Assembly: GCA_963774265.1 (NCBI GenBank) | Contig: CAVZDU010000001.1 | Location: 352,001 to 416,000 of the forward strand | Direction: 5' to 3' | DNA length: 64,000 nt | DNA from: an uncultured Chloroflexia bacterium | Lineage (GTDB): Bacteria; Chloroflexota; Anaerolineae; CG2-30-64-16 | Shown here: piece after piece, positions 4,290 through 39,444 of the stretch | Layout: each line of letters begins with the position of its first letter | How positions within the stretch are numbered: the stretch's first letter is position 1 | Translations under genes and position numbers: made by a program | Notes under the pieces: generated by a model | What the model saw: only the letters and a program-made list of their open reading frames with translations | Database searches by the model: none | What the model was told of the DNA's origin: nothing

Positions 4290-4321
4290 TGTTGTCGCCT
4301 CGCTAGGCCCCCCGGAGGGGC

Positions 4322-4354
4322 AAACAAAAGACCGTGAGCAAAGCGCCCACGGTC
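4322..4354 (-). terminator. Intrinsic terminator in the 5' leader of the ABC-F gene (attenuator)
   Basis: Minus strand GACCGTGGGC-GCTTT-GCTCACGGTC followed by TTTTGTTT, about 35 nt upstream of the ABC-F start. Confidence 0.75.
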
Positions 4355-4393
4355 GGTAGTTGACGTAACATTTCAGTCATTGGGCGCGCTGAA

Positions 4394-12256: not shown

Positions 12257-13249
12257 TCATAGCCACCTCCTCAGCACAGCCGACAGCGCGGCAGCCAGAA
12301 TCGCCGTGACTGGAATCGTCGTCAGCCAAGCCGTGACAATCTGCCTGGCGGTACCCCAACGAACCTTGGAGACGCGCTCGGCCGAACCGACGCCCATAAT
12401 CGCCGAGCTGACGACCTGTGTCGTACTCACAGGGCCACCTATTAGCGCGGCCATGATGATGACCGAAGCCGAGGCAAACTGCGTGGTGAACCCATGGATG
12501 GGCCGAATTTTGTAGAACTTGCCGCCCAACGTCCGGATAAGCCGCCAGCCCCCGGTGGCGGTGCCGGCCGCGATGGCCCCCGCGCAGATTGCGATGACCC
12601 ACAGCGGCACGCGGAAGCTCGGTATCGATCCGGCCGAGACCAGCCCCAACGTAATGATCCCCATCGTCTTCTGCGCGTCGTTTGTGCCGTGGGAAAGCGC
12701 TAACGCCAACGCCGTCACGATCTGCCCCCGCTTGAAAAAAATATTGATGCCCGGAGTCGCTTCACGCGCCAGAAACAGCACCGTCTTCATCACCAGGTAG
12801 CCCGCGAGCAGGCCAAGGGGGGGTGAAATGGCGAGCGCCAACAATACTTTGCCTAGCCCGGCCAACCTCACGACGCCGAATCCACTGTCAACGATCGCCG
12901 CGCCGATCAGTCCGCCCACCAGCGCGTGAGATGAACTGGATGGAATGCCCAGCCACCAAGTGAACACGTTCCAGGTGATCGCGGCGATAAGCGCAGCCAC
13001 CACGACCACAAGCCGTATCTCGCCCTCATTCAGCACTTCGTGGCCGATGGTCGTGGCAACGGCGACCCCGAATAGGAATGGACCGACAAACTCTGCGATG
13101 GCCGTGATCGTCAACGCCTGCCGGCCCGTGAGAGCACGCGAGGCGATCATCGTCGCGACAATGTTTGAGCTGTCGTGAAACCCGTTCAAGAAGTCGAAGA
13201 CCAGCGCCAACACGATCAGCAACAGCAACTGCAAGGGGACTCCAAACAC
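12257..13249 (-). CDS. pit: Inorganic phosphate transporter, PiT family
   Basis: FLNGFHDSSN, GIPSSSSHALVGG, SHGTNDAQKTMG, GGWRLIRTLG, PVSTTQ. Confidence 0.95.
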   Translation of the reverse strand: MFGVPLQLLLLIVLALVFDFLNGFHDSSNIVATMIASRALTGRQALTITAIAEFVGPFLFGVAVATTIGHEVLNEGEIRLVVVVAALIAAITWNVFTWWLGIPSSSSHALVGGLIGAAIVDSGFGVVRLAGLGKVLLALAISPPLGLLAGYLVMKTVLFLAREATPGINIFFKRGQIVTALALALSHGTNDAQKTMGIITLGLVSAGSIPSFRVPLWVIAICAGAIAAGTATGGWRLIRTLGGKFYKIRPIHGFTTQFASASVIIMAALIGGPVSTTQVVSSAIMGVGSAERVSKVRWGTARQIVTAWLTTIPVTAILAAALSAVLRRWL

Positions 13250-13252
13250 ACC

Positions 13253-14221
13253 CTACTCCTTGTTGTCGCGTTCCACGGTGACCAGGCCTCTTTCGGCCAA
13301 CCAACTCAAGCCGTCAGCGATCTGTTCCGCCGAGCTGGCATTCCGGAACTCGCAAGTCCGTAAGATGTCGGTCGGGAGATGACGCGCAACCATGTTCCAC
13401 CTCATCTCCCCGTATCCCACGGGCAGGTGGTCATCCATGCCGATGATGTCGTGCAGATGCACGCCGATCATCCTGTCCGCGAAGCGTGTGAGCCAGTCCT
13501 CGTGCAGGCTGTAGCCCTTGTACTCCGATTTTTCCGCATGGCCGATGTCATGCCAGTAGCCGACCGTTTCGCCAAACCCCGACGCGAGTAGCTCATCCAG
13601 TTCGTGAATCAACGGGATATCGAAGTAATGATCGCGGTTTTCCACTCCCAGCCGGACGCCGCGCGGCGCGGCGTATCTGGCCAGCTCACCCAGGCTACGC
13701 CGCACAGACGCCAGGTGCGCAGCGGCTCGCTCGCTGCGCGCGGCCATCATTATCGATTTGGCCTCCTCGTATGCGGGGGTGTCGCGTTTGCCTTCCTTGT
13801 AAAGACGCGTCAACACGGCTTCAAGCGACTCGTCCATGTTCACCCGGCCGGAGTGGACGATCACAACCCGCGCCCCCAGATCGTGGGCCAGGTCTATGCT
13901 GCGTCGAACGGCCTCAACGCCGCGCCGCCGGTCTGCTTCGTCGATCGCAGAAATCAGCCAATCTCGCTCCTTGAGCTCTGCCACCGACACATCCGATGGG
14001 CAAGGCTCATGGACGCTGGTGATGCGCCGGCCGTTGAGGTGCACGCTCTCGAGCATGGCCGAGTCGACGCCATGATTCAGCTCGAAGCACGTGAAACCGG
14101 CCGTTTGCCCGGCCTCAAAGAACTCACCAAAACGCGCAAACCGCTGGATGCCCCACATGGTAGACAGGGCCACATGACACGTTTTCACTGGCCGCACTTC
14201 GGTTGCTTCCCTATTTGGCAC
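13253..14221 (-). CDS. Sugar-phosphate isomerase/epimerase-like TIM barrel (AP_endonuc_2 family)
   Basis: SVHEPCP, VIVHSG, LGVENR, WHDIGH, GVHLHD, DHLPVGYG, TCEF metal-site pattern. Confidence 0.75.
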   Translation of the reverse strand: MPNREATEVRPVKTCHVALSTMWGIQRFARFGEFFEAGQTAGFTCFELNHGVDSAMLESVHLNGRRITSVHEPCPSDVSVAELKERDWLISAIDEADRRRGVEAVRRSIDLAHDLGARVVIVHSGRVNMDESLEAVLTRLYKEGKRDTPAYEEAKSIMMAARSERAAAHLASVRRSLGELARYAAPRGVRLGVENRDHYFDIPLIHELDELLASGFGETVGYWHDIGHAEKSEYKGYSLHEDWLTRFADRMIGVHLHDIIGMDDHLPVGYGEMRWNMVARHLPTDILRTCEFRNASSAEQIADGLSWLAERGLVTVERDNKE

Positions 14222-15437
14222 TTAGAATCTCACTGATCTCACGCGTGGCCCAAAGTGCAGCGCCGGTGGTGTCGACAACCATGTCGCATGCCTCCAGCTG
14301 CGGCAGGTAGCACTTCTGAGCCATCAGAAACTGCTCTCTGAAAAACCTGTTGCGGAAGTAGTTAGGTTCGTATTTCTTCCGATAATCGACGTCTCGTTTC
14401 CATTTCCGCTTCATCCTGACCGCATCATCAGTCAGATATACCACCTTGATCCCGATCAGGTGCGCAACATCACTCAGCAGAAACGGGAAATTGCCCTCGA
14501 CCAAGACGATATCGGCCGGTTCGATCTCGATCGGAGCGCATCCCGGCTTCAGATTGCCGGCCAGGTTATGGCTGGAGGTGGCGCAAACGAAATCGTATCG
14601 AGGAGTGGCGATTTTGTGTCCCTGGCAGATGGCTTCCAGACTCTGTTTGAGAAGCTCAAAATGGAGTGCCTCTTTGCCGAGCGTGTCGATTCCTGTCTCC
14701 TCCCGATAGTCCCGGTCTGTCAGGAAGTTGTCCATCTCAATGGACGCTACTCTTGCGCCCGCCTCTTCAAGCAAGCCGCGCAGGCGCTCGACGATCTCGG
14801 TCTTGCCAGCCGCGGTTGGCCCAGCGACGGCGAAGAGGACAGGCGTTCCTTTAGCCGCGATGAGTCTCCTGGCACTTTCAACAAAGAGCTGATCAACCTC
14901 CGCATTCGCGGCCCTAAAATCCCTGTAGCCAACACCCTGGTAGCGCTCGAAGCGCTTCTGTCGCTGCTCGAAGCTCCTGAAGGGCATGCCCCCAAGGTGC
15001 GCCAACACTCCGTCGGTGAAATAGACCGTGCGGTGCAGAAAGTAGAATCCTCGGATGTCGAAGTAAAAGTGTTCGCCGACCCACTCTAGTGAGTACTCGC
15101 CCGTGACCAAACCAACAAAGAGCACGCGCGTCAGCCTGGCAATGTTCTCATCCAGCACAATCCGGCCGTCGACGCGTGGCTTGAGCTGGATCCGCGCATA
15201 GAAATCACTGCTGTTGACCCGCTTCTCGATCTCCTCCGCCCTGTCGATCTGTACCGAGCCCCAGCCCCCCTCGTCGGGGTAAAGATTCTGCAACGCATAA
15301 CGAAACTCATAAAGTTCCAGGTCCTCGACGCCTGGATTGATCCGCCTCAACTTGTCATACAACGCTTCGGCGAACAAATCCTGATCGGCGAATAGGTTTG
15401 ACACCGGCAACTCGTCCTCCGCTACACTATGCACCAT
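14211..15437 (-). CDS. PRK/uridine-kinase-fold P-loop kinase with unrecognised N-terminal domain (paralog B; start may be GTG 15404)
   Basis: VAGPTAAGKT, IEMDNF, PRYDF, LVEGNF, RMKRKWKRDVDYR. The first ~200 aa are shared with paralog A. Confidence 0.75.
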   Translation of the reverse strand: MVHSVAEDELPVSNLFADQDLFAEALYDKLRRINPGVEDLELYEFRYALQNLYPDEGGWGSVQIDRAEEIEKRVNSSDFYARIQLKPRVDGRIVLDENIARLTRVLFVGLVTGEYSLEWVGEHFYFDIRGFYFLHRTVYFTDGVLAHLGGMPFRSFEQRQKRFERYQGVGYRDFRAANAEVDQLFVESARRLIAAKGTPVLFAVAGPTAAGKTEIVERLRGLLEEAGARVASIEMDNFLTDRDYREETGIDTLGKEALHFELLKQSLEAICQGHKIATPRYDFVCATSSHNLAGNLKPGCAPIEIEPADIVLVEGNFPFLLSDVAHLIGIKVVYLTDDAVRMKRKWKRDVDYRKKYEPNYFRNRFFREQFLMAQKCYLPQLEACDMVVDTTGAALWATREISEILSAK

Positions 15438-16632
15438 ACTTGCCTACGCGACCCGCGTTGGCAAGCGCAATCGGCATGATGTCCTTGGCCGGCAGCACTC
15501 CCAGGCTGCCTCGCGCACAAGCGCGCTCGCCGAACTCGCCGATGCCGTCTGGGCGCACGTGCGGGGCGTACAGCAGCGTCGGCACCGGATGCCAACTGTG
15601 CGATTTAAGCACGGCCGGCGATGAATGGTCGCCACTGACGATTACCACGTCTGGCCCGAGCGACAGCAGGCGCGGCATCAGCGCATCTACCTCCTCAATG
15701 ACGCGCACCTTGCCCGCGAAGTCGCCGCTCTCGCCTGCTGTGTCGGTCTGCTTGACATGCAGATAGAAGAAATCGAAATCTCTCCAATTCTTCTCCAGCG
15801 CGGCAAACTCGTCTGCAATTGTCACGCCCTGGACGGCCAGGGTCGTCATCCCCACGAGTTTGGCAACCCCGCGATACATGCCGTTCACCGCGATGGCGGC
15901 GGCACGGAGGCCGAAAAGCTCCGCATATTGAGGCACCGCGGGAAATCGGGCGAAACCGCGCAGCAGGATCATATTGGCGGGCTGCCTGTCCCGCAACAGC
16001 CGGCCCGCTTGTGTGATGAATTGATTTGCCAGCGCTGCGGCTCGTTCGGAGTCTGGCCTGAGCGCGTTCACCGACAGGGGCTTCACGCCGATCGCTTGTG
16101 GATCCGTCTCGGTCAGGGCATCGCTCAGGCCAGCCCCTCGCATCACAAAGGCGAAACGGTGCTCCTTGACCAGCTCGACAAAGCAGTCGGCGCCGTCGAG
16201 CCGGATCGTCCGCAATAACTCCGCCAGCTCCCGGCTCGCCTCGGTCGGCAGCCGCGCGGCGCGACGATCCGTCAATACCCCCGCCGCGTCAACCGTGCAG
16301 AAATTGCCGCGCGCGGCCACGTCGTCAGGTCCCAGTTCAAAGTCGACCCCGAGCGCCTCCAGCGCCCCGCGGCCGATCTCGTACTCGAGTGGATCGTAGC
16401 CGAATATGGCAAGATGTCCCGGACCGCTGCCCGGTGTAATGCCCGGCCCCACGGGAACGGTCAGCCCCAGCGCCGATTGCGCGGCCAGCGCGTCGAGATT
16501 GGGCGTGGCCGCAGTTTCCAACTCAGTCTTGCCGCCCGGCTCCAACGGCAATCCACCGAGCCCGTCCATGATAATCATCGCAATCTTCGTGCGGGCCGGC
16601 ACAATCAAGTCTTGCAGAAACCTGAGATTCAT
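15427..16632 (-). CDS. apgM: Cofactor-independent phosphoglycerate mutase, archaeal-type (ApgM)
   Basis: MDGLGG, GKTELETAATPNLD, GITPGSGPGHLAIFGYDP, GRGALEALG, RGNF, KQTDTAGE, GDHSSP, HSWHPVP. Confidence 0.85.
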   Translation of the reverse strand: MNLRFLQDLIVPARTKIAMIIMDGLGGLPLEPGGKTELETAATPNLDALAAQSALGLTVPVGPGITPGSGPGHLAIFGYDPLEYEIGRGALEALGVDFELGPDDVAARGNFCTVDAAGVLTDRRAARLPTEASRELAELLRTIRLDGADCFVELVKEHRFAFVMRGAGLSDALTETDPQAIGVKPLSVNALRPDSERAAALANQFITQAGRLLRDRQPANMILLRGFARFPAVPQYAELFGLRAAAIAVNGMYRGVAKLVGMTTLAVQGVTIADEFAALEKNWRDFDFFYLHVKQTDTAGESGDFAGKVRVIEEVDALMPRLLSLGPDVVIVSGDHSSPAVLKSHSWHPVPTLLYAPHVRPDGIGEFGERACARGSLGVLPAKDIMPIALANAGRVGKYGA

Positions 16633-16690: not shown

Positions 16691-17875
16691 CTAGAGGATT
16701 TCGGCCATTTCCGGCGTTACCCATATGGCTGCGTCGGTCGTATCAACAACAATGTCGCACACCTGCATTTGGGGCTGATAACAGTCCATGGCCCTCAGAA
16801 ACTGAGTCCTGAAGAAACGGTTGCGAAAGTAGTTGGGATCATACTTCTGCCGATAGTCAATATCGCGTTTCCATTTCCGTTTGAGCCTGATCGGATCATC
16901 TGTCAGGTACACCACTTTAACTCCGATGTAGTCAGCCAGCTCCTTGCTCTGAAATGGAAAATTGCCCTCAAGGAAAATGACATCAGCCGGCTCAATCTCC
17001 AGTGGAGCGCAGCCCGGCTTCAGGTTGCCGTCCAAATCGTGGCTGGAGACAGACGAAGTGTAGCGAGGAATAGCGATCCTTTGCCTTTGGATGATCGCCT
17101 GAAGGCTCTCCATAAAGAGTCCAAAATGGTAGGCTTCTCTCCCTAGCGAATTGATGCCCATCTCATCCCGATAGTCGTTGTCGAGAAGGAAGTTATCCAT
17201 CTCGATGGAGGTAACCTTTCTTCCTAGTTGCTCAAGCGCACATCGCAAGCGCGCGACGATCTCGGTCTTTCCAGCGGCCGTGGGCCCGGCAAGCGTGACA
17301 AGAATGGGCGTGCCCTTCGCTGCGACGAGCCTCTTGACACTCTCGATAAAGCACTGATCCACCTGGGCATTAGCCTCTTTGAAGGCTTTGTAGCCCACAC
17401 TCTGGCACCGTTCAAATCGCTTTTGCCCCTGATCGAAGCGCCTCCATGGCTCGCCGTCAAAATGCGCCAACACCTGATCCGTGAAATAGGTGGTGCGACT
17501 CAGGAAGAGAAAACCTCTGATGTCGAAATAGAAATGCGTTCGAACCCACTCTTCTGAGTAGTCTCCCGTGACCAGGCCCACGAAAAGCATGTCGGTCAAC
17601 TGCACGATGTTTTCGTCCAGCACAATCTTGCCGTCGACCAGCGGCTTAAGTTGGATGCCAACATAGAAGTCGCGCGTGCCCATCCGCAGTTCGATATCTG
17701 CCTGGGCATCCAGCTTTACAGACGCCCAGCCTCCGGGCTTAGGGCACAGGTTGTCCAGTGCGTAACGGAATTCGTAGAGTTCCATTTCCTCCACCGCTGG
17801 GGCAATCGACTTCATCTTCTCGTACAGGAGAGAGGAAAAAACATCGGGATTGGACAACATGTGCGATGCCGACAT
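16691..17875 (-). CDS. PRK/uridine-kinase-fold P-loop kinase with unrecognised N-terminal domain (paralog A)
   Basis: LAGPTAAGKT, IEMDNF, FLEGNF, RLKRKWKRDIDYR. Colinear with 14211-15437 along its whole length. Confidence 0.75.
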   Translation of the reverse strand: MSASHMLSNPDVFSSLLYEKMKSIAPAVEEMELYEFRYALDNLCPKPGGWASVKLDAQADIELRMGTRDFYVGIQLKPLVDGKIVLDENIVQLTDMLFVGLVTGDYSEEWVRTHFYFDIRGFLFLSRTTYFTDQVLAHFDGEPWRRFDQGQKRFERCQSVGYKAFKEANAQVDQCFIESVKRLVAAKGTPILVTLAGPTAAGKTEIVARLRCALEQLGRKVTSIEMDNFLLDNDYRDEMGINSLGREAYHFGLFMESLQAIIQRQRIAIPRYTSSVSSHDLDGNLKPGCAPLEIEPADVIFLEGNFPFQSKELADYIGVKVVYLTDDPIRLKRKWKRDIDYRQKYDPNYFRNRFFRTQFLRAMDCYQPQMQVCDIVVDTTDAAIWVTPEMAEIL

Positions 17876-17886
17876 ACAGGTGCCTC

Positions 17887-20184
17887 CTAGCTCGCGACAA
17901 CCTGCCGCCCGATGCCGAACACAAACGCATCGTACGCTCGTTTGGTCTTGGCATAGTTGCCATTGCGATCGAGCGCGATGCCTCTCCCAACGCCCGAAAC
18001 GATTTGCCCGATGCCGATCTCGGCCACCCGGCGTCCCAGTTTCTCCAACAGCGCGGGCGCACTCCCCGGCTCAGTGCTGCGGCCGTCAAAGATCACATGC
18101 ACGTAGACGTCGTTCAAGCCATACGCCTTGGCCATGCGCAGTAGCGCCAGCGGATAGTCAATCGAGCCATGTGAGCTTCTTTCCGAGAGCAGGCCGATCA
18201 GGTGCAGGCTGGCCCCGCGCTGCCGGACGTCCGCTATGGTGCGCAACAAAACCTCGTTGGTGTAGAACGAGCCATCCTGCATCGCCAGGCCTAGCCGCAC
18301 GTCGTCCTGCAGCACCACGCGGCCCGCGCCGATGTTCATGTGACCGGCCTCTGAATTGCCTGGCTTGTCCGCCTGCAGTCCCGCCGCCTCGCCAGCAGCC
18401 TGCAACTGGGCAAGTCCATAGCGCTGCGTCAGTGCGTCCCAGGTCGGCGTCGCTGCGAGCCAGATCGGATTATTCTCGTCCTCCTTGCCGATACCCCAGC
18501 CGTCGAGGATGATGAGCAGCACGCGGCGCGCCCCTCCCCAGTCATGCTCGAGCGCCAGACTTGCGCCATCCATCGTTTGCGGCTGCGGGATGCCGAGCGC
18601 ATGCAGTACGGTCGGCGCGATGTCGGCCAGCTTGCCATTGCGCAGGCGCACGAGCGACGGCCCAGCCGGATCCAGCAGGAGGAACGGCACGGGGTTGGCC
18701 GTGTGCGCGACGTGGGGCGTGCCGTCAGGGGTGGTCAGCTCTTCCAGGTTGCCGTGGTCGGCGGTCACGAGGACGACATAGCCAGCGGCGAGCGCGGCGT
18801 CCACCACCTGCCCCAGCCGCGTATCTACGGCCTCGGCGCACGCGAGCTTGGCGGCGCGGTTAGCCGTGTGGCCGATAACGTCGCCGTTGGCGAAGTTAGT
18901 TACGATCAGATCGTAGTGATCGGCGATGCCGAGCGCCACCCCGGCGGAGACCTCCGCCAGGCTCAGCTCCGGCGCCTGTTCAAAGGGAATCCTGGTGGGC
19001 GAAGGGATGCAGACATCGTGCTCGCCGAAGAATGGCTGGCTATTCCCGCCGTTGAAGAAAAACGTGACGTGTGCGAATTTCTCCGATTCGGCGATACGCA
19101 GTTGGCGCAGACCGGCGCGGGCCACAGCCTCTCCCAGGGTGTCCCTGATCTTCGTCGGTGCGAAGGCCACCGGCAGGTCCTTGAATTTCTCGTGGTAGAG
19201 CGTCAGGATGACGAAGGGGAGGTTGCTGAAATCGCGGCGCGGAAAGCGATCGAACCCCCGCTCGGTGAATGCCTCGGTCAACTGGATCTGGCGTTCGCCT
19301 CGCCTGCAGCAAAAGATCACAGCGTCGCCATCCTCAATCCGGCCAATCGGGGCGCCCTGCGCGTCCACCAGAACCAACGGTTCGAGGGCGTAATCGGTTT
19401 CGCCCTCGCGATACAACTCCCTCACTCCCTCGGCCAGAGCAACAGCGTCGGACGGCACAGGACGTGACGGGAAGATCTCCAGCAGGTCGCTGAGCTTGTG
19501 GATGATGAGATCGGGCCGGTCTTCGTCCGGGACAGGTGCGTCGCGGTCGTCGGGACTCGCCAGGATGATCACACTCCCGAAGCCGGCCTTGCGTGTCCCG
19601 AGGACATCCCGGGCGGTGTTATCGCCTACGTAGGCGCATCGCGCCGGATCAACGCCAGCCAACCGCGCGGCTTCCTGGTAAATGGCCGGGTCCGGTTTGC
19701 GCTTCCCGAAGACGGACGAGAGGATGACCGACTTGAAATAGGGGGCAAGTCCGTCGGCCTCAAGCCAGTCGGGGATCTCCCGGCTGGTGATGACGTTGCT
19801 GATGATCCCCAGAATGTAGCCGCGGCGGTGCAGCTCGAGGATGACTTGCCGGGCATCTTCCTGCACCACCCGCCGCCCCATGGTCTGGCGGTACTGGTAG
19901 GTCAGCTCAACCGCCAGCCCCGCGATCTCGTCGTCCGGATAATCGGGCAGCAGCCAGCGCGTCCACAGCTCGGCTTCAGGGGCTTCGATCAAGTGCTCGG
20001 TCGCCCACTTTCGGTAGACCTGGTAGTGCCGGTCAATCTCCTGGCAGAAGGTCTCGGGGTCTACGTGAGTCCCGACCAGCGTGGCGATCTGCTGCCGCGC
20101 CCGCGCCTGATGCGCCTCGTCTTTCAAGAGGATGCGCAAGGTATTGCCGAGGTCCAGGAAAACGGCATCAATCTCAGGAGTCAT
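17887..20184 (-). CDS. Fusion of a HAD-IA hydrolase and a circularly permuted GpmI-type (iPGM) phosphomutase
   Basis: HAD motifs (FLDLGNTL, ISN, KPDP, YVGD..D), then the GpmI C-half (GETD..DGDAVIF, AESEKFAHVTFFFNGG, NFANGDVIGH, TADHGN, AHTANPVP, LADIAPT), then the GpmI N-half (LIILDGWG, GNSEAGHMNIGAGR, LHLIGLLS, FDGR, GR..DR). Confidence 0.9.
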   Translation of the reverse strand: MTPEIDAVFLDLGNTLRILLKDEAHQARARQQIATLVGTHVDPETFCQEIDRHYQVYRKWATEHLIEAPEAELWTRWLLPDYPDDEIAGLAVELTYQYRQTMGRRVVQEDARQVILELHRRGYILGIISNVITSREIPDWLEADGLAPYFKSVILSSVFGKRKPDPAIYQEAARLAGVDPARCAYVGDNTARDVLGTRKAGFGSVIILASPDDRDAPVPDEDRPDLIIHKLSDLLEIFPSRPVPSDAVALAEGVRELYREGETDYALEPLVLVDAQGAPIGRIEDGDAVIFCCRRGERQIQLTEAFTERGFDRFPRRDFSNLPFVILTLYHEKFKDLPVAFAPTKIRDTLGEAVARAGLRQLRIAESEKFAHVTFFFNGGNSQPFFGEHDVCIPSPTRIPFEQAPELSLAEVSAGVALGIADHYDLIVTNFANGDVIGHTANRAAKLACAEAVDTRLGQVVDAALAAGYVVLVTADHGNLEELTTPDGTPHVAHTANPVPFLLLDPAGPSLVRLRNGKLADIAPTVLHALGIPQPQTMDGASLALEHDWGGARRVLLIILDGWGIGKEDENNPIWLAATPTWDALTQRYGLAQLQAAGEAAGLQADKPGNSEAGHMNIGAGRVVLQDDVRLGLAMQDGSFYTNEVLLRTIADVRQRGASLHLIGLLSERSSHGSIDYPLALLRMAKAYGLNDVYVHVIFDGRSTEPGSAPALLEKLGRRVAEIGIGQIVSGVGRGIALDRNGNYAKTKRAYDAFVFGIGRQVVAS

Positions 20185-21604
20185 TGACCCTCAGTGGGAA
20201 GATATCCAGCAGCTCGCGGCACGAGCGAATGATCACGTCGGGCATGTTGTCGCCGGTGGGAGGCTCCCTCTTCTTCTTGGCCTCATCCATCAGGATGATG
20301 ATCATCCCGAAGCCGGCCCGCCGGGTGCCCTCGACATCACGAAGTGGATTGTCACCGACATAGACGCATCGCGCCGGCTCGACGCCGATCCGCCGCGCGG
20401 CCTCCCAGTAGATCTCGGGCCCAGGTTTCCGGTTTCTGACCTTGGACGATAGCACCACCGCCTGGAAGTAGCCGGTGAGGCCGTCGGATTCGATCCAATC
20501 CGGGATCTCGGTCTCGGTGATGGTATTGGCGATGATCCCCAGGCGGTAGCCGCGCCGGTTCAACTCCAATACGGTTTCTTTTACGTCAGGCCGCGGGACG
20601 CGCCGCCCATCGTGATCGCGCCACAGTCTCGTGAGCTTTCCTGCCAGAGGGCCGATCTTCGCGGCCGGGAAATCGGGCAGCATGAAACGGGTCCACAATT
20701 CTTTCTCGGATGCTTCGGTCAGGGTCTCAAAAGACCACTTTCGGTAGGCTTTCCATCGTTCATCCAACTGTGCGAAGAACGTCGTCTCGGGGGTTTCTTG
20801 CGCTCCCACCAAAGACCTGAGCTGCTGCCTGGCCTCAGCCTGAAACGTCGCGTCTTCCACCACGATGCGCAGGGTGTTGCCGACGTCTAAAAAGATGGCT
20901 TCGATGTCCGGAATTCTCGCCGCAGCCTGTGGCGCTGCTGGTCGCTCGAATATGGGAACGTCAAGCAGGTCCGGCAGCGTCTCGGCGTAATAGTCAGCCC
21001 TGGCTTGCGGGTCGTATCGCACCGCCACGGTGGCCAGCCCTACTTGTTTGGCCCCCTCAAGCTCCCTGGCATCATGACCTACGAAGGCCGATTCAACCAC
21101 CGAGAGCCGCGCTTGCTGGACTGCGTTCAGGAAGATGGCAGGATCTGGTTTGCGCACGCCCAATGTTGAGGAGCACGCCACGACATCGATATATTCGGCA
21201 ACCCCTACTTGCTCAAGCCAATCCATTTTCTGTTCGAGCGGATAGATTGTGTCTGTGACAATGCCCAATAGAAAGCCGCGCCGCTTCAGCACCGCCAAGG
21301 TCTCTGGGCCACCCGGGACCGCGCGCACTGCGTTCGCGTGCGCCAGGATCTTCGCGACCAGCGCTGCGCGCTCTTCCGATCTGTCCACGCGATGGGTCCG
21401 GAGTACCTGGTCCCAATAGGCGACGGGATCGACGAAGCCCACGTTCGCACCTTGGTACATACTCTCGAGGAGCGCCTTATCCTCGGCAGAGAGGGGACCT
21501 GCGTAGCCCGCTTCCATGAGGATGCGGGCAGCGGCGTCATCCGTCCGTTCATCCCGCTCATAAAACACATCGGCTGCATCGAAGAAAATGCCTTTGATCG
21601 CCAT
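20174..21604 (-). CDS. Tandem two-domain HAD-IA hydrolase
   Basis: Domain 1 FFDAADVF..KPDP..FVGHD; domain 2 FLDVGNTL..KPGP..YVGDNPLRD. Start ATG 21604 after GAGG. Confidence 0.85.
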   Translation of the reverse strand: MAIKGIFFDAADVFYERDERTDDAAARILMEAGYAGPLSAEDKALLESMYQGANVGFVDPVAYWDQVLRTHRVDRSEERAALVAKILAHANAVRAVPGGPETLAVLKRRGFLLGIVTDTIYPLEQKMDWLEQVGVAEYIDVVACSSTLGVRKPDPAIFLNAVQQARLSVVESAFVGHDARELEGAKQVGLATVAVRYDPQARADYYAETLPDLLDVPIFERPAAPQAAARIPDIEAIFLDVGNTLRIVVEDATFQAEARQQLRSLVGAQETPETTFFAQLDERWKAYRKWSFETLTEASEKELWTRFMLPDFPAAKIGPLAGKLTRLWRDHDGRRVPRPDVKETVLELNRRGYRLGIIANTITETEIPDWIESDGLTGYFQAVVLSSKVRNRKPGPEIYWEAARRIGVEPARCVYVGDNPLRDVEGTRRAGFGMIIILMDEAKKKREPPTGDNMPDVIIRSCRELLDIFPLRVNDS

Positions 21605-21667
21605 CTCAATCGCCTCTTGCCATCCACCCCGGATGATGGATCGCCGTGCGGGCACTAGCACCCGTCG

Positions 21668-22432
21668 TTAGTGGTCTGTGGTCGACAGGGTTAGGGCCGC
21701 CACGACTTCCATAAGATCGTGAATTACGTGGTCCGGCGGTTCGGTGTCCGTTTCCCGGTCCAGTTTGTCGGTGAGAAACGACTTGATCAGAATCACAAGC
21801 CCATAACCGGCGCGACGCGCGCCGCTCACGTCCCGCGACACAGTGTCGCCCACGTAGGCGCATTCGATCGGCAGCAGTCCCAGCAGCCGGGCCGTTTCGA
21901 GGAAGATGTGCGGGTTGGGCTTGCGCCAGCCGAAGTTCGAGCTTGTCACGACGGGATCGAAGAAATGAGCGATGCCGTACTCGGCCAGTTTCACCTGTAC
22001 CATCCGGCGGCTGATGATGTTGGAAATCACCGATAGTCGCAAGCCGCGTTCGCGCAACGCCTCCAGAGCGACAGGCGCTTCCGGCCGCAGGGTGCGAATA
22101 TAGAAATGTGTCTCGTAGAAGAACGTGAGGTCTTCGGCGGCTTCCAGGAGACGATCTCTGGGCAGGCCGTGATCGGGAAAGATGTATTCCGTCCAGACCT
22201 GCCCCGGTGAGAGTTCGACCTCGCTAATCTCGCGCCAGCTTGTGTATGCCTTCATACCGGAAAGGACCGTCGCCTGCAATTCGGGCAGCGACAGATCCGG
22301 AGCGAGGCCCATCGCCGCCAGCAGTCGCTTCAACCCGCACGTGGCTTCGGTGCGCGTCGCATCATCGTAATACAGGTTTTCGAGCGTGCCGCCCAGGTCA
22401 AAGACGACGGCCTGGATGGGGTGGATCGCCAT
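21668..22432 (-). CDS. HAD-IA hydrolase
   Basis: VFDLGGTL, VISN, RKPNP, YVGDTVSRD. Confidence 0.85.
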   Translation of the reverse strand: MAIHPIQAVVFDLGGTLENLYYDDATRTEATCGLKRLLAAMGLAPDLSLPELQATVLSGMKAYTSWREISEVELSPGQVWTEYIFPDHGLPRDRLLEAAEDLTFFYETHFYIRTLRPEAPVALEALRERGLRLSVISNIISRRMVQVKLAEYGIAHFFDPVVTSSNFGWRKPNPHIFLETARLLGLLPIECAYVGDTVSRDVSGARRAGYGLVILIKSFLTDKLDRETDTEPPDHVIHDLMEVVAALTLSTTDH

Positions 22433-22536: not shown

Positions 22537-23868
22537 CTACGGAGCGGTAAGCAGACTCACTGCCCAGAAGTCGCGTATTTGGCTGTTGTTCTTATACGCG
22601 AATAGATCATCGCTCGGCCAGAGCGAGACTTCAGATAGCGGAGGCATGCCTTCGGCAACGGTAAGGCCTTCGGCCGGTGGGTAGACACCGATCTTGTTCC
22701 AGGGATCGAAACCATCCTCCGAGAGAGCGAATTTGATGAACAGTTTGGCAGCATTGGGGTGCGCAGACTTGTTGGCAATGGCCAGATAGTTGGCTTTCAA
22801 CACACCGCTCACTGGTTTGAGAGTGAGACAGGGCGCCATGGCCAATTCTCCATCCATCGTAGTCTCATAGCTGTCCCAACCGGTCCAGCCATACCCGGGT
22901 TCCACTGCTTTGTCCATGCCCAGCGTGGCATAGGCCGCGTCGACCTCATCGCCGCCGGGCTGGATGCCGGGTTTGTTCTGGGCCAGCTTCTTCAGGAACA
23001 GGTAACCTGCATTGGAGACGTCCTTGCTATACGCGGGGTCGGTGGTCCAGTCTTTGCCGTAGAATTCCTGGTAGTTCGCGGCCATTTGATCGGCGTGTTC
23101 TACGATCAGGGCGATCTTGGCTGTGGTGCTGGAATCAGCGATGGGATCCTCCATGTAGAACTTGCCCTTTAGTTTCGGTTCGGTCAGCTCCCACCAGCTC
23201 TTGAGCGGGCAGCCGTCCGGGTTGATCTCCTGGTTGTAGCCTATGACATCCGCTGCGCGGCGCGAAAGCGCATACGGCCGTTCTGGGGTCACCTCCTTTT
23301 CCACCACACCCGGGGGGAGGTACCACCAGATCCATTGATTGGGCATAAACTCGCCGTACAGCAGATGCCCGTCGCTGTTGAACCAGACATCCCCGACGAC
23401 GTTCCCGGCTTCCTGCTCTGCCTGCATCTTGACGGCGATGTCATCGGTGTCACCACCCTCCAGTGCGATGTCGGGGTACAGCTCATGCCATTTGTCGAGT
23501 AGCTTCTCAAACTTGGAAGAGTTGGCGTAGACAACCACTTTCCCTTCCTTCTTTGCTGCCGCTTCGACGGCCGCCCAGTCCTCCTCGGCGGGCTGATACG
23601 GTCCCAGGCCATTTGCTTTCGCCCATTCCTCCGCAGCAGTGAGAGTGGGTCCTGGTACGGCGGTCGGCGGGGCTGCGGTCGGCGGGGCTACGGTTGGCGG
23701 TACGGCGGTCGGCGCCGGGGCCGCGGGAGCAGCGGTCGGCGGCACGGCGGTGGGCGGCACGACGGTCGGCGCCGGGGCCGCGGGAGCAGCGGTCGGCGCC
23801 GGGGAGGCGCAGGCCGCCAACAAGGTGATAAGCAAGAATGCGAGAGTAATCCTACTGAACCCTTTCAT
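22537..23868 (-). CDS. ABC substrate-binding lipoprotein (Fe3+/AfuA/thiamine-type class) with Pro-Ala-Thr linker
   Basis: Lipobox LLAAC, repeated PPTAV/APTAA linker, AAAKKEGKVVVY, SWWELTEPKLKGK, HPNAAKLFIKF. Confidence 0.85.
   Translation of the reverse strand: MKGFSRITLAFLLITLLAACASPAPTAAPAAPAPTVVPPTAVPPTAAPAAPAPTAVPPTVAPPTAAPPTAVPGPTLTAAEEWAKANGLGPYQPAEEDWAAVEAAAKKEGKVVVYANSSKFEKLLDKWHELYPDIALEGGDTDDIAVKMQAEQEAGNVVGDVWFNSDGHLLYGEFMPNQWIWWYLPPGVVEKEVTPERPYALSRRAADVIGYNQEINPDGCPLKSWWELTEPKLKGKFYMEDPIADSSTTAKIALIVEHADQMAANYQEFYGKDWTTDPAYSKDVSNAGYLFLKKLAQNKPGIQPGGDEVDAAYATLGMDKAVEPGYGWTGWDSYETTMDGELAMAPCLTLKPVSGVLKANYLAIANKSAHPNAAKLFIKFALSEDGFDPWNKIGVYPPAEGLTVAEGMPPLSEVSLWPSDDLFAYKNNSQIRDFWAVSLLTAP
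23650..23805 (-). repeat. 15-bp-period and ~60-bp duplicated repeats encoding the PAT-rich linker
   Basis: GCGGTCGGCGG units. CGGTCGGCGCCGGGGCCGCGGGAGCAGCGGTCGGCG occurs twice. Confidence 0.7.
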
Positions 23869-23971: not shown

Positions 23972-25055
23972 TCATGGCGAAATCAGATCGCCGCTCGCTT
24001 TGTCGTACAGGTTCAGAGTCGCGGGGTCGAAGCTCAGCCAGATCCGCTCATCCATCTTGGTCTTGCTGATGCCCATTACTTTGACTGTGACCTCAGTGTT
24101 TTCCAGGCGCGCTGATGATGGTTGAGTCGGCTCCCGACGGCAGAACCGAATATGCGGTAAACTCCGCAGCGCCCGGGATGGGTGTTGTCGAGATGGCGAT
24201 ATCTTCCGGCCGGGCGGCCACCACCACTTCTCCGGTCGCGTGGTGCGTGTTGAGGGTGACCTTGAATCTGCCCAAGTCGACCGAATTATGCCCATCCACG
24301 ACACCATTCAGCAGGTTCACTTTGGGGTTGCCGATAAAATCGGCCACAAACAGGTTGGCCGGATAGTGATACACGCGGTCGGGGGTGTCTAATTGCTGCA
24401 GGACGCCCTCCTTCATCACTGCAATCTGGGAAGACATGGTCAACGCTTCCACCTGGTCGTGTGTGACATAGACCGTAGTCGCCCCGGAAACATGGTGCAG
24501 GTGTTTGATTTCCGCCCGCATATCCATGCGCAAGCGTGCGTCCAGGTTGGACAGTGGCTCATCCATCAAGAAGACCTTGGGGCGGTAGGCCAGCATGCGG
24601 GCGAGAGCGATGCGCTGTTGTTGCCCGCCGCTCATCTCGCGCGGATAGCGGTCCGCGTACCCCTCCATTTGCACTTCGGCCAGGGCTTCTCTTGTCCGCT
24701 TTTCAATTTCGGCCCTGGGCTGTTTCTGGATCTCCAGCGCGAAGGTCATGTTTTTTTGGACCGTCATGTGTGGCCAGAGGGCATAGTTCTGAAAGACAAG
24801 ACCCAGGTCGCGCTTGCCGGGAGGTAGCGAGATGCCCCGCTCGCGAGAAAAGACCAGCTTGTCCCCGATAAGGATCTCTCCTCCATCTGGGTCTTCCAGG
24901 CCAGCCAGGCAGCGCAGCAAGGTCGTCTTGCCGCATCCGGAAGGGCCCAGAAGGGTCAGGAAGCTTCCGGATTCGACAGTCAGGCTGACACCATTGACAG
25001 CGACGACGCTGCCGAAACGCTTGGTGAGGTTGCGAATCATGATGGTTGTTGACAC
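23972..25055 (-). CDS. ABC ATPase (FbpC/MalK-like with TOBE domain), one frameshift near 24105
   Basis: GPSGCGKTT, MSGGQQQR, MDEPLSNLDARLR, YVTHDQ, FVADFIG. The C-terminus continues in the 23972 frame. Confidence 0.9.
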
Positions 25056-25068
25056 GGTTGCCTCTCCC

Positions 25069-26904
25069 TTACATTCCAAGACCCTTCTTAAGACTGCCGC
25101 CCCGGATTCGACTGATGAAAAAGTAACCAATTGCAACGAGCACGATCAGGATCAAGATGACAGCGTTCGCCATCTGGGCATCGCCGTTTTCGGTATAGAA
25201 CATGGTCTGGCTGGCGAGCACTTGGGTTTGTGGCGTGACCAGCAGGATGATCAAAGACAGTTCGCGCATGGTGGTGATAAACGTCAGCAGGAATCCGGCG
25301 ACAAAGCCGCTGCTGGTGAGCGGAAAGATAATGCGCCTGAAACGCTGCCAGATGTTGGCGCCGGCGACCATGCCCGCCTCCTCCAGTTCCCGGCCGACCT
25401 GCATCATGGCCGAAACCCCCGAACGGGAGGAATAGGGGATATGTTTGGCCACCGAGACTACCACCAACAGGGTGAAAGTCCCGTACAACGCTGGGATCGG
25501 CCCCAGTGGCTTAATGAACATCGCAATGTAGACTGCGCCAAAGGCAATGCCGGGGATCACGTACGGAATGAAGGCCAATTGCTCGACCAGTTTACTTAGC
25601 CGGGTACCCCGGCCTTTGACAATAGCATAGCCGAGAATAATACCCAGGAGGGCCGTGAATAAGGCCGTCCATATCGAAAGCCGGATGGAGTTCCAGGCGG
25701 TCATGTAGATTTTCGGGTTGCGCAGGACTCCAGGCTCTCCATGGTTATAAATCGTGTTGCGCGCTCCAATCCAGTGCTGTAAGGAGAGATTGCTCAGGCT
25801 GTAATTCCCATCCTGCAACATCAATGTGGAATAGACCAGAAGGCCCAACGGAACGACGATGACAAAGATCTGAAACACGATCGCGGCGATCAGCGCAACA
25901 CGTTTCATCTTTCCCAGCTTGTTCACCTGCGCAACGAAGCCTCGTCCGCCAATCGTCTCGTAGCTCTTGCGCGTCCCGACCAATCTCTGGTTGAGTCGAA
26001 TAATAGTCATAGACATTAGAACCAATACGATTGCCAGCACAAAGGCATCCGCTTTATCTCCAACGCCTATACTGCCGCGGATCATGGTGGCCACTACATA
26101 GTACCTGACCGGTGTTCCGAGGATATTTGGCCCACCGAAGGTGCCCAGCACCTTGGAAAAAGTCATGATGAAACCCGAGAGGATCGCCGGCAGGACGAGC
26201 GGGAAGGTGATCTTGCGCAGAATGCGCCAACGGCTGGCGCCCGCCAATTCTCCAGCTTCTTCCAGGTTGGAATCAATTGACATCAACGCCGCCGACACGA
26301 ACAGGAAAAAGAACGTGTAGTAGTGCAGCGCGCTGCAGATGATGATGGGCACCGGCCCGTACGATAGCCAGCTTGGGGGGCTTTGTCCCACCAGGTACTC
26401 AAAAACTCCCGACGTTCCGCCAGAAAGCCTGTTCTTGAAAAACACGAGCCAAGCCTGGGCCAGGGTCCAGGATGGCATAATGTAGGGGATCACCGCCAGT
26501 TGATTGACGAGCTTTCTGCCCGGCATATCGGTGCGGACGACCAACCAGGCCAAGGAACCGCCGATCAAAAGCGCAAGCAGGGTGGCTCCAATTGCTATGG
26601 TCATCGAATGCTGAAGCGGGGTATACATGTAGATTTTCCCGAAAACGCCCGTAAGCATCCTGACATAGTGAAAAATCGTGAGTCCGCCGACCTCAGCGTC
26701 CGGGACGCGGGTGAGATCATGAGGCTGCCAGGTCACCGTAGTCGCAACCATGCGAAACAAAGGTATGATGACCATGTAGAACATCAAGACCAGCATGATC
26801 AAGGACAGAACGACTCGGGCGCTCGTCAGCCAGCGGATGAACCTTCTGGAGGAGGCAAGGAGTCGCAACGAAAACAGTTGCCGAGACGCCGGAGTGACAG
26901 CCAT
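25069..26904 (-). CDS. ABC permease, FbpB/AfuB type (duplicated BPD_transp_1)
   Basis: Two EAA loops (LEEAGELAGAS, LEEAGMVAGAN), RTDMPGR, about 12 hydrophobic segments. Confidence 0.9.
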   Translation of the reverse strand: MAVTPASRQLFSLRLLASSRRFIRWLTSARVVLSLIMLVLMFYMVIIPLFRMVATTVTWQPHDLTRVPDAEVGGLTIFHYVRMLTGVFGKIYMYTPLQHSMTIAIGATLLALLIGGSLAWLVVRTDMPGRKLVNQLAVIPYIMPSWTLAQAWLVFFKNRLSGGTSGVFEYLVGQSPPSWLSYGPVPIIICSALHYYTFFFLFVSAALMSIDSNLEEAGELAGASRWRILRKITFPLVLPAILSGFIMTFSKVLGTFGGPNILGTPVRYYVVATMIRGSIGVGDKADAFVLAIVLVLMSMTIIRLNQRLVGTRKSYETIGGRGFVAQVNKLGKMKRVALIAAIVFQIFVIVVPLGLLVYSTLMLQDGNYSLSNLSLQHWIGARNTIYNHGEPGVLRNPKIYMTAWNSIRLSIWTALFTALLGIILGYAIVKGRGTRLSKLVEQLAFIPYVIPGIAFGAVYIAMFIKPLGPIPALYGTFTLLVVVSVAKHIPYSSRSGVSAMMQVGRELEEAGMVAGANIWQRFRRIIFPLTSSGFVAGFLLTFITTMRELSLIILLVTPQTQVLASQTMFYTENGDAQMANAVILILIVLVAIGYFFISRIRGGSLKKGLGM

Positions 26905-26923: not shown

Positions 26924-27800
26924 TCAAGTCATGCTGGGGAGTTCGAAATGATAAGCCACGCGCATTCTCTCCATCCGTTCAAGCGCGCCAAGGCTTTCCT
27001 GCGGCCGCGCCATTGCAACAGCCAGGATCAAGGCATTCACGATCGCCATCGGCACGGTCAACGAATGAAAAGTCGATACAGGTCCTCGGCGTGCGGCAAG
27101 CACTACATCCACCTTGTCTCGGAATGCCGCACCCAGGGTATCGGTGAGCAAAATACTGTGACAACCGACAGTGTGCGCGTGTTCCACCGTAGCGGCCAAC
27201 TCGGTGCTCTTGTGATGAAATCCTGTGATCACGACCGCATCTTGCGGCTGAAGCAGTTGAAGCTTTTCGACCATGTCGCGGCCCGATTCGGTGATAGCGA
27301 TGGCATCGATGCCGAAGCGCCGCAATCGAAGCTCAAGCAAATCGGCCAGGATGGCCGAGGGTCCACCGCCGCGCACAAACACCCGGCGGCCATTCAGGAC
27401 GATCTCGACCGCCCGATCGAAATCAGCCGTGGAGACGCTGCGCTCGGCCTCAGCCAGGTATTGTATTTCCATATCGAGGACTTTAGGGAGGATGTGGCCC
27501 TGGCTGCCTGAAAGCTCGGCGAGTTTATGTTGGAGCCGGGCGGCCGGGGTAACCTGACCCCGGTAAAGATCCTGGATGGCGCGCTTAAGCTTCAGGAAAG
27601 CCATCGTAGCCAATAACCTTGGCGAAGCGCACTACCGTGGCTTCGCTCATTTGGAGGCGGCGCGCGAGGTCGGCCGCGGAGAGAAACGCGGCCTCATCAT
27701 AGCTCGTTAGCAGGTAAGTAGCGATGCGCTGTTGGCTCTTGGAAAGGTCCAACATGCGCGCTTCGAGTTGACGGCGAAAACCGGCAAGTTCCTCGTCCAT
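26924..27800 (-). CDS. MurR/RpiR-family transcriptional regulator (HTH + SIS), frameshift near 27590
   Basis: LSKSQQRIATYL..SEATVVRFAKVIGYDGF, then the SIS domain in the next frame. Confidence 0.9.
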
Positions 27801-27870
27801 GAGTACTCCCGAGTCCTCAAAAGAGCTCTTGCGTGGATAATCAGGAAGCACGACCGCCAAATGATGCAAG

Positions 27871-27899
27871 ATTATACCACATATTAATTCAGAATGCAA
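27871..27899 (-). promoter_or_regulatory. Promoter of the rpiR/phospho-ester operon
   Basis: Minus strand TTGCAT, 17-bp spacer, TATAAT with an extended-10 TG. The imperfect palindrome ATGCAA-N6-TTTCAT (27894-27911) overlaps the -35. Confidence 0.7.
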
Positions 27900-27925
27900 G
27901 AGAGATTTCATGTCAGAATCTTCTC

Positions 27926-27955
27926 TTGACAACCGCGATGCCCTGGTAGTATACT
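27926..27955 (+). promoter_or_regulatory. Promoter of the lacI/iol operon
   Basis: TTGACA (27926-27931), 18-bp spacer, TATACT (27950-27955). Confidence 0.7.
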
Positions 27956-27994
27956 CTGACCGTCTTGCACACGTGTGCAAGACGGTCAGAGTAT
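27951..27994. promoter_or_regulatory. Perfect 44-bp palindrome with LacI-type operator core TTGCACACGTGTGCAA
   Basis: ATACTCTGACCGTCTTGCACAC|GTGTGCAAGACGGTCAGAGTAT, with no spacer and no mismatch. Confidence 0.85.
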
Positions 27995-28055
27995 GGAGTA
28001 ACAAGGCCCGCATTTCCATCAGCCAGCCCGCTCGTTCGGAGGAGTCAGGAGTGTC

Positions 28056-29063
28056 GTGAAGACCTCCATCAAGGATATTGCCCGGGCTGCCGGCATCTCC
28101 CATTCAACGGTCTCCAGGGCGCTGAACGACAGCCCCCTGGTCAACACCGAAACGAAGGCGCGCGTCCGGCGCCTGGCGCAGGAGTTGGGCTACTCGCCCG
28201 ACGCGGCCGCGCGCAGCCTCGTCAGCGGCCGGACACGCACGGTCGGGGTGGTGGTCACAACCATCGCGGACCCGTTTGTCGCGGTTGTCATGGAGGGCAT
28301 CGAGCGCACGGCCTACGCATGCGGCTATTCCCTGATCCTCGCCGCGTCGCACAACGAACCGCAACGCGAGATCGCAGCAGTCGAGATGCTGCGATCCAAG
28401 CGTGTTGACTCAGTGATCGTGACATCGTCGCGCGTCGGCACGCTGCACCAGGAGCGGCTCGGTTCCGCGGGCGTGCCGGTGATCCTGCTCAACAGCCACA
28501 GCCAGCAAAAGATGCCCAATGCATACTCCGTGCGGGTCGATGACATACACGGCGGCCGACTGGCCACCGAGTATCTGCTCGGGCTTGGTCACCGGCGCAT
28601 CGCCCACGTGGCCGGCCTTGAAGGGCACAGCGATAGCAACGACCGACTCGACGGGTACCGGAGCGCTCTGGACGGGGCCGGCATCGCCTTTGATCCGGCG
28701 TATGTCGTAAGCGGGACCGGCCGGCTCGATGGCGGCCGCGAGGCGCTGCCGGCACTCCTGGAGCTGCGCGAACGGCCCAGTGCCGTCTTCTGCTACAACG
28801 ATATGACCGCAATCGGGCTGCTCTCTGCCGCGCGGGCTGCGGGGGTGGCTGTGCCGCGTGACCTGGCGGTGGTCGGATTTGATGACATCCCATGGGCCGC
28901 GCACGTCACGCCGGCCCTCACCACGGTCGCACAGCCGATGTTCGAGCTCGGCGAGCGCGCAATGAACATGGCTCTCGTGCTCATGAGTCACAAGGGAATC
29001 GCCCCCTGCGATGTGACGGATGTGATCCTGCAGGGACAGTTGATCGTGAGAGAATCCACTTAA
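28056..29063 (+). CDS. LacI-family transcriptional regulator
   Basis: TSIKDIARAAGISHSTVSRALN, GHRRIA, FCYND, VVGFDD, PALTTV. Confidence 0.95.
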   Translation: MKTSIKDIARAAGISHSTVSRALNDSPLVNTETKARVRRLAQELGYSPDAAARSLVSGRTRTVGVVVTTIADPFVAVVMEGIERTAYACGYSLILAASHNEPQREIAAVEMLRSKRVDSVIVTSSRVGTLHQERLGSAGVPVILLNSHSQQKMPNAYSVRVDDIHGGRLATEYLLGLGHRRIAHVAGLEGHSDSNDRLDGYRSALDGAGIAFDPAYVVSGTGRLDGGREALPALLELRERPSAVFCYNDMTAIGLLSAARAAGVAVPRDLAVVGFDDIPWAAHVTPALTTVAQPMFELGERAMNMALVLMSHKGIAPCDVTDVILQGQLIVREST

Positions 29064-39386: not shown

Positions 39387-39415
39387 ACTCAGTCCAAGGT
39401 GGAACTTGCAGGCAT

Positions 39416-39444
39416 ACCTCCAAGGTCTCGGAGACCTCGAAGGT
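39416..39444. repeat. Short palindromic REP-like element
   Basis: ACCTCCAAGGTCTCGGAGACCTCGAAGGT, an imperfect palindrome in the iolN-iolM spacer. Confidence 0.55.

Follow-up and report, generated by a model that had tools for sequence, protein, structure and literature searches.

Here, we analyzed a window of 64,000 nucleotides (the whole stretch of DNA under study) from the genome of an uncultured Chloroflexia bacterium and found in it an open reading frame (ORF) on the minus strand, at positions 17887-20184, whose product is a HAD module fused to a complete 2,3-bisphosphoglycerate-independent phosphoglycerate mutase (iPGM, GpmI) with its two halves in swapped order. We hold this architecture to be virtually certain; ORF analysis, Pfam, HMMER and NCBIfam together describe the mutase part as a circularly permuted iPGM-like enzyme. 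The ORF begins with ATG and codes for 765 amino acids with no internal stop. An earlier note on this DNA, made from the letters alone, had proposed an intact ORF for a circularly permuted GpmI joined to a HAD domain, and both claims were borne out, the latter by the matches to 1ejj, TIGR01307 and Pfam.

A HMMER comparison with PDB entry 1ejj, the 511-amino acid iPGM of G. stearothermophilus, gave two strong matches in swapped order. Residues 252-544 (positions 18553-19431, minus strand) correspond to iPGM residues 218-509 (i-E 2.1e-68); they contain the second part of the transferase domain and the main part of the phosphatase domain, with Arg295 and Arg298 (iPGM Arg261 and Arg264), Lys369, Asp435, His439, Asp476, His477 and His494. 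They precede residues 554-759 (positions 17908-18525, minus strand), which correspond to iPGM residues 5-210 (i-E 7.7e-44) and comprise the N-terminal part of the phosphatase domain, with Asp561 and Ser611, and the first part of the transferase domain, with His672, Arg702, Ser703 (replacing Asp154), Arg734 and Arg740. The colinear order of phosphatase N-part, transferase domain and phosphatase C-part is thus absent. From the two swapped matches it follows that the ancestral C and N termini are joined by nine residues (545-553, LEHDWGGAR; positions 18526-18552, minus strand), and the WGG of this linker is a conserved element of the family consensus. The break between the new termini corresponds to about iPGM residue 211-217, within the transferase domain, and the chain therefore starts in mid-transferase, passes through the phosphatase domain, crosses the nine-residue bridge and returns at its end to the first half of the transferase domain. 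TIGR01307, the GpmI model (EC 5.4.2.12) whose alignment the earlier note had proposed as a check, also matched in two stretches in swapped order, not colinearly; its score of 466 bits passed the cut-off of 330.65, whereas the stricter equivalog model NF003897 reached 375.7 against a cut-off of 862.

Pfam placed HAD (PF00702) at residues 5-201, with the whole HAD domain extending over residues 5-235, and found both Metalloenzyme and iPGM_N in two stretches, the best iPGM_N stretch aligning residues 634-760 with profile positions 4-130 of 217. The HAD-IA-type module as a whole occupies residues 1-235 (positions 19480-20184, minus strand). The junction of residues 236-251 (positions 19432-19479, minus strand) follows, and stands where most relatives have a stop codon, a spacer and a start codon between two genes. 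Landmarks placed by the earlier note agreed with ours: the codon of Ser611, the predicted phosphoserine nucleophile equivalent to iPGM Ser62 in the alignment, lies at 18352-18354 (minus strand), RRVLLIILDGWG begins near 18525 and the HAD module extends to about 19480. An AlphaFold2 model of the permuted part reached a pLDDT of 94.3 and a pTM of 0.87, and its best fold matches in Foldseek were the iPGM structures 1o99, 1o98 and 1ejj (E ~1e-20); the alignments covered one half only (275-324 columns, TM ~0.46) because the search is sequential. For the full-length fusion the model reached a pLDDT of 83.5 and a pTM of 0.64, with several active-site loops below 50 and the orientation of the two modules not fixed.

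The earlier note had asked for other permuted copies, and they proved to be numerous. Among the best 120 homologues from 5.8 billion proteins, all 120 are permuted alike; most of those listed are standalone proteins of about 528 amino acids with 72-79% identity along the full length of the mutase part. From 1.84 billion proteins, the 150 top-ranking representatives at 50% identity comprise 21 permuted proteins (17 of full length), four fragments of one half and 125 canonical ones. A scan of species genomes found relatives encoded in 537 of 596 stretches. Locus counts below refer to the best 80 of these 537 genome stretches (L031-L110), 48 of which have full 10-kb flanks; all 80 come from Anaerolineae-type genomes (62-76% identity), including that of the cultured Levilinea saccharolytica KIBI-1, and the permuted order was present in 80/80, in independent assemblies. 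Among 40 relatives, full-length colinear matches to the permuted query occurred in G002, G004, G005, G025 and G026 (the last with 44% identity), the rest giving weak metalloenzyme matches only. Evenly sampled over the phylum, 400 genomes added three more permuted forms (G116, G187 and G055), and those of other classes mostly showed the two-piece pattern that marks canonical GpmI. The resulting tally, 197/401, includes four unpublished genomes (G311, G184, G212 and G382, all of the two-piece type), on which no claim is based. Beyond Chloroflexota, members of the remodelled-pocket clade described below were found under the source names Pseudomonadota, Candidatus Desulfofervidus, Limnochordia and other Bacillota. 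The permuted family is widespread and apparently undescribed: a literature search, outside whose reach lay supplementary files and subscription journals, returned no paper on a permuted iPGM and none on the Anaerolineae operon in which the gene lies.

Could the swapped order or the HAD fusion be an assembly or frameshift artefact of this one genome? The assembly does contain oddities (a gpmA in three pieces, an RpiR gene in two ORFs and an 819-amino acid ORF that combines IolN and IolM), and the exact DNA was found in no public sequencing run, the largest share of sampled words from this genome in any run being 0.09, with no RNA run listed. Against this stand the uniform order in the homologues and loci counted above, that of L. 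saccharolytica KIBI-1 included, the recurrence of the fusion in G004, G005, L046 and nine further protein clusters, and contigs of relatives with 91-92% identity that bridge both junctions gap-free. The permutation joint is bridged over 17887-18782 (X3 record 17) and the HAD joint over 19239-19638 (X1 record 5), which contradicts a mis-join at about 18545 or 19450, the event that the earlier note had named as fatal to its proposal. An artefact is accordingly a negligible prospect, and for the permutation it is refuted by the same order throughout independent assemblies.

The fusion to HAD is a minority form, seen in 3/80 loci and in 10 of the 120 homologues listed. Among the 80 loci it occurs only in L046, L059 (a contig of G005) and L061 (a contig of G004), both genomes belonging to the genus of our bacterium, and among the homologues listed it is found in nine further protein clusters. 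In G002, of the same genus, the HAD and mutase genes stand apart. A separate ORF of the same HAD type (HADc, below 330 amino acids) is present in 55/80 loci and in most loci lies directly upstream of the mutase gene. The fusion is therefore a rare alternative to the usual arrangement, in which the HAD gene lies next to the mutase gene, and it links the HAD module to the mutase.

For the comparison of substrate pockets, the halves were cut and aligned separately, giving 158 rows, 25 permuted and 133 canonical; near-identical main-group proteins, fragments and the truncated P0214 were left out. The two-metal site and the nucleophile of our protein (P0001) are complete: Asp561, Ser611, Asp435, His439, Asp476, His477 and His494 are the counterparts of canonical Asp12, Ser62, Asp403, His407, Asp444, His445 and His462. 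The retention of metal ligands and phosphoserine that the earlier note had reported thus holds in the alignment. Kept as well, in canonical numbering, are His123, Arg153, Arg185, Arg191, Arg261, Arg264 and Lys336. Over all 158 rows the metal ligands, Ser62, His66, His123, Arg185, Arg191, Arg261 and Lys336 are at least 97% conserved. The phosphoglycerate-contact residues of iPGM (1EJJ/1EQJ), which reportedly include Asp154 of DGRD, form an incomplete set in our protein, in which Ser703 stands for Asp154, the putative base for the glycerate hydroxyl according to the earlier note.

Each change in the transferase-domain motifs listed in the earlier note is present: SDGGVHSH is replaced by SERSSHGS, DGRD by DGRS, GRYYxMDRD by GRGIALDRN and NFRxDR by CRRGER. 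The pattern extends to a whole clade. Of the 25 permuted rows, 21, that of our protein among them, have SSHG for GGVHSH and R-G-E/D-R for R-x-D-R; P0001 carries the signature in the form of ERSSHGS, DGRS, RGI and CRRGER and is placed inside this clade. DGRD was found in 125/133 canonical rows and in 0/21 clade rows, where the position reads DGRS in 15, GRRG in three and other variants in three. Further columns specific to the clade are D263E, M404V, V64A, V122S, M189L, A24P and a change of Thr to Ser two residues before Lys336, almost all of them adjoining a catalytic or binding residue. The extra Arg residues to which the earlier note had pointed do exist in this protein; they are not a property of the clade at large, in which a basic residue occupies the Phe260 position in 16/21 rows and the Gly120 position in 12/21.

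The remaining four of the 25 permuted rows (P0135, P0141, P0147 and the domain in P0227) keep the canonical pocket, with DGRD, GVHS, RYY and NFRxDR. In P0227, a giant protein of 5027 amino acids, the permuted iPGM module (residues ~3859-4376) is complete and its pocket is of the canonical type. The 21 rows with a remodelled pocket form one clade, with a FastTree support of 1.0 and, in a 51-row set, a Shimodaira-Hasegawa-like approximate likelihood ratio test (SH-aLRT) support of 99. FastTree placed the permuted group with canonical pockets among canonical GpmI, apart from the remodelled clade. The independent origins of the two permuted groups at which that tree hints were not shown, since the approximately unbiased (AU) test did not reject a single clade of all permuted forms (p 0.843), and the constrained tree was in fact better by 27.6 log-likelihood units. 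Therefore, a single permutation event followed by remodelling of the pocket is possible.

The HAD module belongs to the HAD fold and family by its scores with PF00702 (64.9 bits, cut-off 26.4) and PF13419 (54.7, cut-off 23.8), and PF13242 was matched too; the subfamily models TIGR02253 (95.2 bits, cut-off 169.75) and TIGR02252 both stayed below their cut-offs. Motifs II-IV are kept, with GIISN at 126, KRKPD at 161 and GDN at 187. Motif I reads FLDLGNTL, in which the nucleophile Asp11 is kept and Gly stands at Asp+2, so that the pattern DxDx(T/V) with an acid/base Asp+2 is absent (DLGNTL). In all four types of HAD module encoded by the surrounding operon the nucleophile Asp is kept, and Asp+2 is Gly, Ala or Asn, never Asp, among the listed variants, with motif I patterns of DxGNTL, DxGGTL and DAGDxL. 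The pattern was counted in 216 modules of relatives (L031-L110): 71 of HADc, 87 of HADb, 34 of HAD1 and 24 of HADa type. The lack of Asp+2 is unusual among HAD phosphomonoesterases; these modules may act on substrates with good leaving groups, or may use another acid/base residue.

The fusion gene is part of a run of genes from 26904 down to 12257 of the window, all on the minus strand. Upstream of it lie a fused ABC permease of 611 amino acids (25069-26904), an ABC ATPase (24093-25136), an ABC binding protein of 443 amino acids (22537-23868), a single HAD protein of 254 amino acids (21668-22432) and a double HAD protein of 495 amino acids (20174-21661), which overlaps the start of the fusion ORF by 11 nt. 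A PRK/uridine-kinase-like kinase of 394 amino acids (copy 1, 16691-17875) follows 12 nt downstream, and after it come an ApgM-type phosphomutase of 401 amino acids (15427-16632; NF003160 555.8 bits, cut-off 468), a second PRK-like kinase (14211-15437), a xylose-isomerase-like TIM barrel (13253-14221) and a PHO4/PiT transporter (12257-13249). The nearest relative of the ABC permease is PhnU2. The binding protein has a weak likeness to the FbpA/AfuA class: it matched an iron-binding protein with E 4.9e-7, AfuA (4r72) with 0.029 and a protein that binds pyridoxal phosphate with 0.057. This gene set recurs in relatives, the TIM barrel and PiT in some genomes. The 48 full-flank loci have HAD genes in 48, an ABC permease in 45, ApgM in 42, a PRK-like kinase in 42 and all four in 34, nearly always on the same strand, and an RpiR-type regulator in 44.

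Several observations on single members of the operon can be added. Each of the two PRK/uridine-kinase-like paralogues has an N-terminal extension of about 190 amino acids with no Pfam match, and relatives' operons mostly have one or two such copies. The TIM barrel gave weak hints only (CbiR phosphodiesterase 26 bits, IolE 21 bits, MJ1311 (PDB 3wqo) E 3.7e-7) and is fused to a HAD module in some relatives, e.g. L075, L081 and L093. The RpiR regulator upstream of the operon is divided in the window between two overlapping minus-strand ORFs (26924-27613 and 27585-28103), HTH_6 lying in one and SIS in the other, the split being either a frameshift or an assembly indel; in G116 it is a single gene of 295 amino acids. 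On Limnochordia-type metagenome contigs (L124, L126, L128 and L131), the clade enzyme adjoins a RapZ-like gene with the HAD/ApgM operon genes not nearby, and at 3/4 of these loci the other flank has an ORF of 570-574 amino acids at the phosphoglucomutase/phosphomannomutase position (Pfam-annotated in L124 only).

Genes for inositol catabolism of the Thermotoga type lie near the operon. In the window they span 38.2-41.7 kb, where tblastn found IolN (88% identity), IolM (83%) and IolO (58%); an ORF of 819 amino acids on the plus strand (38261-40720; NF041098 254.5 bits, cut-off 245) combines an IolN part with an IolM-like part, and the IolO-like match begins at about 40893. The combined ORF is either a real fusion or the result of a lost stop codon. 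In G116 a divergent neighbouring operon reads LacI-UxaE-ADH-IolN-IolM-IolO, and the NCBIfam scores there all exceeded the cut-offs (IolN 310 against 245, IolM 525 against 450, IolO 340 against 300). At least one of IolN, IolM, IolO and UxaE was found in 24/48 full-flank loci. The inositol pathway of T. maritima is reportedly the subject of a 2013 paper by Rodionova. In that pathway IolO is the 5-keto-L-gluconate 4-epimerase (PMC12632266). Between the operon and the iol genes of the window, a plus-strand gene (34339-36546) codes for a protein of 735 amino acids with two tandem periplasmic sugar-binding (Peripla_BP_4) domains, adjoining a sugar ABC permease and a ROK kinase.

A separate candidate for the housekeeping phosphoglycerate mutase (PGM) was present in 6/6 genomes checked. 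GpmA is intact in G002 and G004, and a second ApgM is encoded elsewhere in G116, G187 and G025. In the genome of our own bacterium (G000) the gpmA-type (cofactor-dependent) gene (C9:119164-119896) is matched as three fragments that lie in different frames and include one TGA; seen alongside the divided RpiR gene, these fragments suggest assembly indel errors or pseudogenes.

Both the operon in which the gene lies and the presence of other, housekeeping PGMs speak for a role of the permuted enzyme outside glycolysis, and its substrate is probably not 3-phosphoglycerate (3PG). Judging from the changed motifs, the pocket may have been repurposed for a larger and more anionic substrate, as the earlier note had supposed. 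We tentatively read the protein, at somewhat less than an even chance, as a candidate phosphomutase that would act through phosphoserine on an inositol or polyol phosphate taken up by the cell and pass its product to the HAD module. The phosphate of the substrate would pass to Ser611 at the metal site, as in iPGM, the transferase domain would retain the dephosphorylated anionic intermediate, and the phosphate would then go back to a neighbouring hydroxyl. As substrate we envisage an imported cyclitol or polyol that carries phosphate, with an inositol phosphate as the likeliest candidate. Once moved, the phosphate would be cleaved off by the HAD module, which is fused here and separately encoded next to the mutase elsewhere, and free inositol would enter the IolM/IolN/IolO steps. 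A wider version seems improbable to us: a cytoplasmic inositol-phosphate (phytate-type) route of Anaerolineae, with import by a system of the FbpA/AfuA class, phosphate shifts by the permuted enzyme and perhaps ApgM, dephosphorylation by the four HADs and catabolism by IolM/IolN/IolO. Within such a route, the HAD fusion would be Rosetta-stone evidence for a coupled mutase-phosphatase step.

Several findings weigh against an inositol or polyol phosphate as the substrate. The assignment to inositol phosphate as the most probable one is drawn from the gene neighbourhood only, and 24/48 full-flank loci have no iol gene within 10 kb. The similarities of the binding protein are weak (E 4.9e-7 to an iron-binding protein; 0.029 to AfuA), and a route of dephosphorylation alone would offer no evident task for the operon kinases. 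Since Asp+2 is missing from each of the four HAD module types, these modules may differ from ordinary phosphomonoesterases. The residues at the core of 3PG binding (His123, Arg185, Arg191, Arg261 and Lys336) show at least 97% conservation in canonical and permuted rows alike, and the cut-off of TIGR01307 is passed, so that the enzyme may have PGM activity. Finally, the Limnochordia context, with RapZ and a phosphohexomutase and without the operon, implies that the clade may have more than one function.

Two other accounts of the enzyme have to be set beside this one. It might be a true mutase of 3PG and 2-phosphoglycerate, the permutation and the pocket changes being neutral or a matter of tuning, in an operon that needs a PGM, e.g. 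for glycerate-derived carbon. The TIGR01307 score and the conservation of Ser62, His123, Arg185, Arg191, Arg261, Lys336 and the metal ligands speak for it, as do the Limnochordia-type context of central sugar-phosphate metabolism (RapZ and phosphoglucomutase/phosphomannomutase) and the permuted sister group of P0135, P0141 and P0147, whose full canonical pocket means that permutation alone is compatible with such a pocket. That same comparison also turns against it, since the DGRD that the sister group and 125/133 canonical rows retain is missing throughout the clade, and the NF003897 score falls far short of its cut-off (375.7 against 862). Moreover, an ApgM above its equivalog cut-off is encoded two genes away and another PGM candidate exists in 6/6 genomes, and a third PGM would therefore be redundant; the enzyme is also patchy within the class, most relatives having neither permuted nor canonical GpmI. 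We consider a true mutase of 3PG unlikely.

The enzyme might instead be a phosphoserine phosphotransferase or phosphatase acting on some organophosphate other than an inositol phosphate (a bisphosphorylated glycerate of the 2,3-bisphosphoglycerate type, the phosphate of a sugar acid, or that of a sugar or polyol), the iol neighbours then reflecting only shared regulation of carbohydrate genes. The retained Arg cluster suits any substrate with a carboxylate or a second phosphate, and besides ApgM the operon encodes PRK/uridine-kinase-type kinases. RpiR-type regulators sense sugar phosphates, and one with a SIS domain accompanies 44/48 full-flank loci; the class of the binding protein has sugar-phosphate ligands, although the matches to it are weak. 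What counts against such an account is that inositol genes are the sole recurring catabolic neighbours (24/48 full-flank loci) and that sugar-acid or glycerate pathway genes were not seen in the loci examined. Nor did BLAST and Pfam checks of the loci read show a cyclic-2,3-diphosphoglycerate synthetase gene. It appears doubtful to us on balance, and we retain the phosphomutase of inositol or polyol phosphate as our tentative reading.

These findings bear on evolution, annotation and ecology. A central-metabolism enzyme that is permuted in hundreds of genomes of several phyla would offer a clean case of permutation with a change of function. Because the clade proteins pass TIGR01307, databases label them either "hypothetical" or "2,3-bisphosphoglycerate-independent phosphoglycerate mutase", and a glycolytic PGM may be assigned wrongly when the metabolism of Anaerolineae is reconstructed. 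The operon constitutes a large, conserved and uncharacterised organophosphate system, in which the fusion connects the function of one HAD module with that of the permuted enzyme and thereby points to a specific two-step reaction. Digesters, wetlands and soils are rich in Anaerolineae; should an inositol phosphate prove to be the substrate, the system would represent an undescribed route for the turnover of organic phosphorus.

Among known systems, canonical GpmI/iPGM (TIGR01307; 1EJJ, 1O98, 1O99) is the nearest, both of its domains being present here with 41-45% identity per half. Unlike it, our protein has a permuted chain, Ser for Asp154, SSHGS for GGVHSH, RGER for RxDR and RGI for RYY, as well as a HAD module fused at the new N terminus, and its operon is one of importer, phosphatase and kinase genes, not a glycolytic one. 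The permuted iPGMs with canonical pockets (P0135, P0141 and P0147) share the break point and the order of halves, and differ from the clade in retaining DGRD, GVHS, RYY and NFRxDR. ApgM (NF003160/TIGR00306), the operon partner two genes downstream, has the metal core of the alkaline phosphatase superfamily in common with the permuted enzyme, and differs in its cap domain (PF10143) and its normal chain order, the similarity between the two being weak (E ~1e-8). For the HAD module, the best solved relatives of residues 5-238 are of the HAD-IA REG-2/CTE7 type, represented by HDHD3 (PDB 3K1Z; E 3.3e-13 to 3k1z) and NANP (PDB 4KNV); the fold and motifs II-IV are held in common, whereas our module has Gly in place of the Asp+2 general acid/base and is fused to a phosphomutase.

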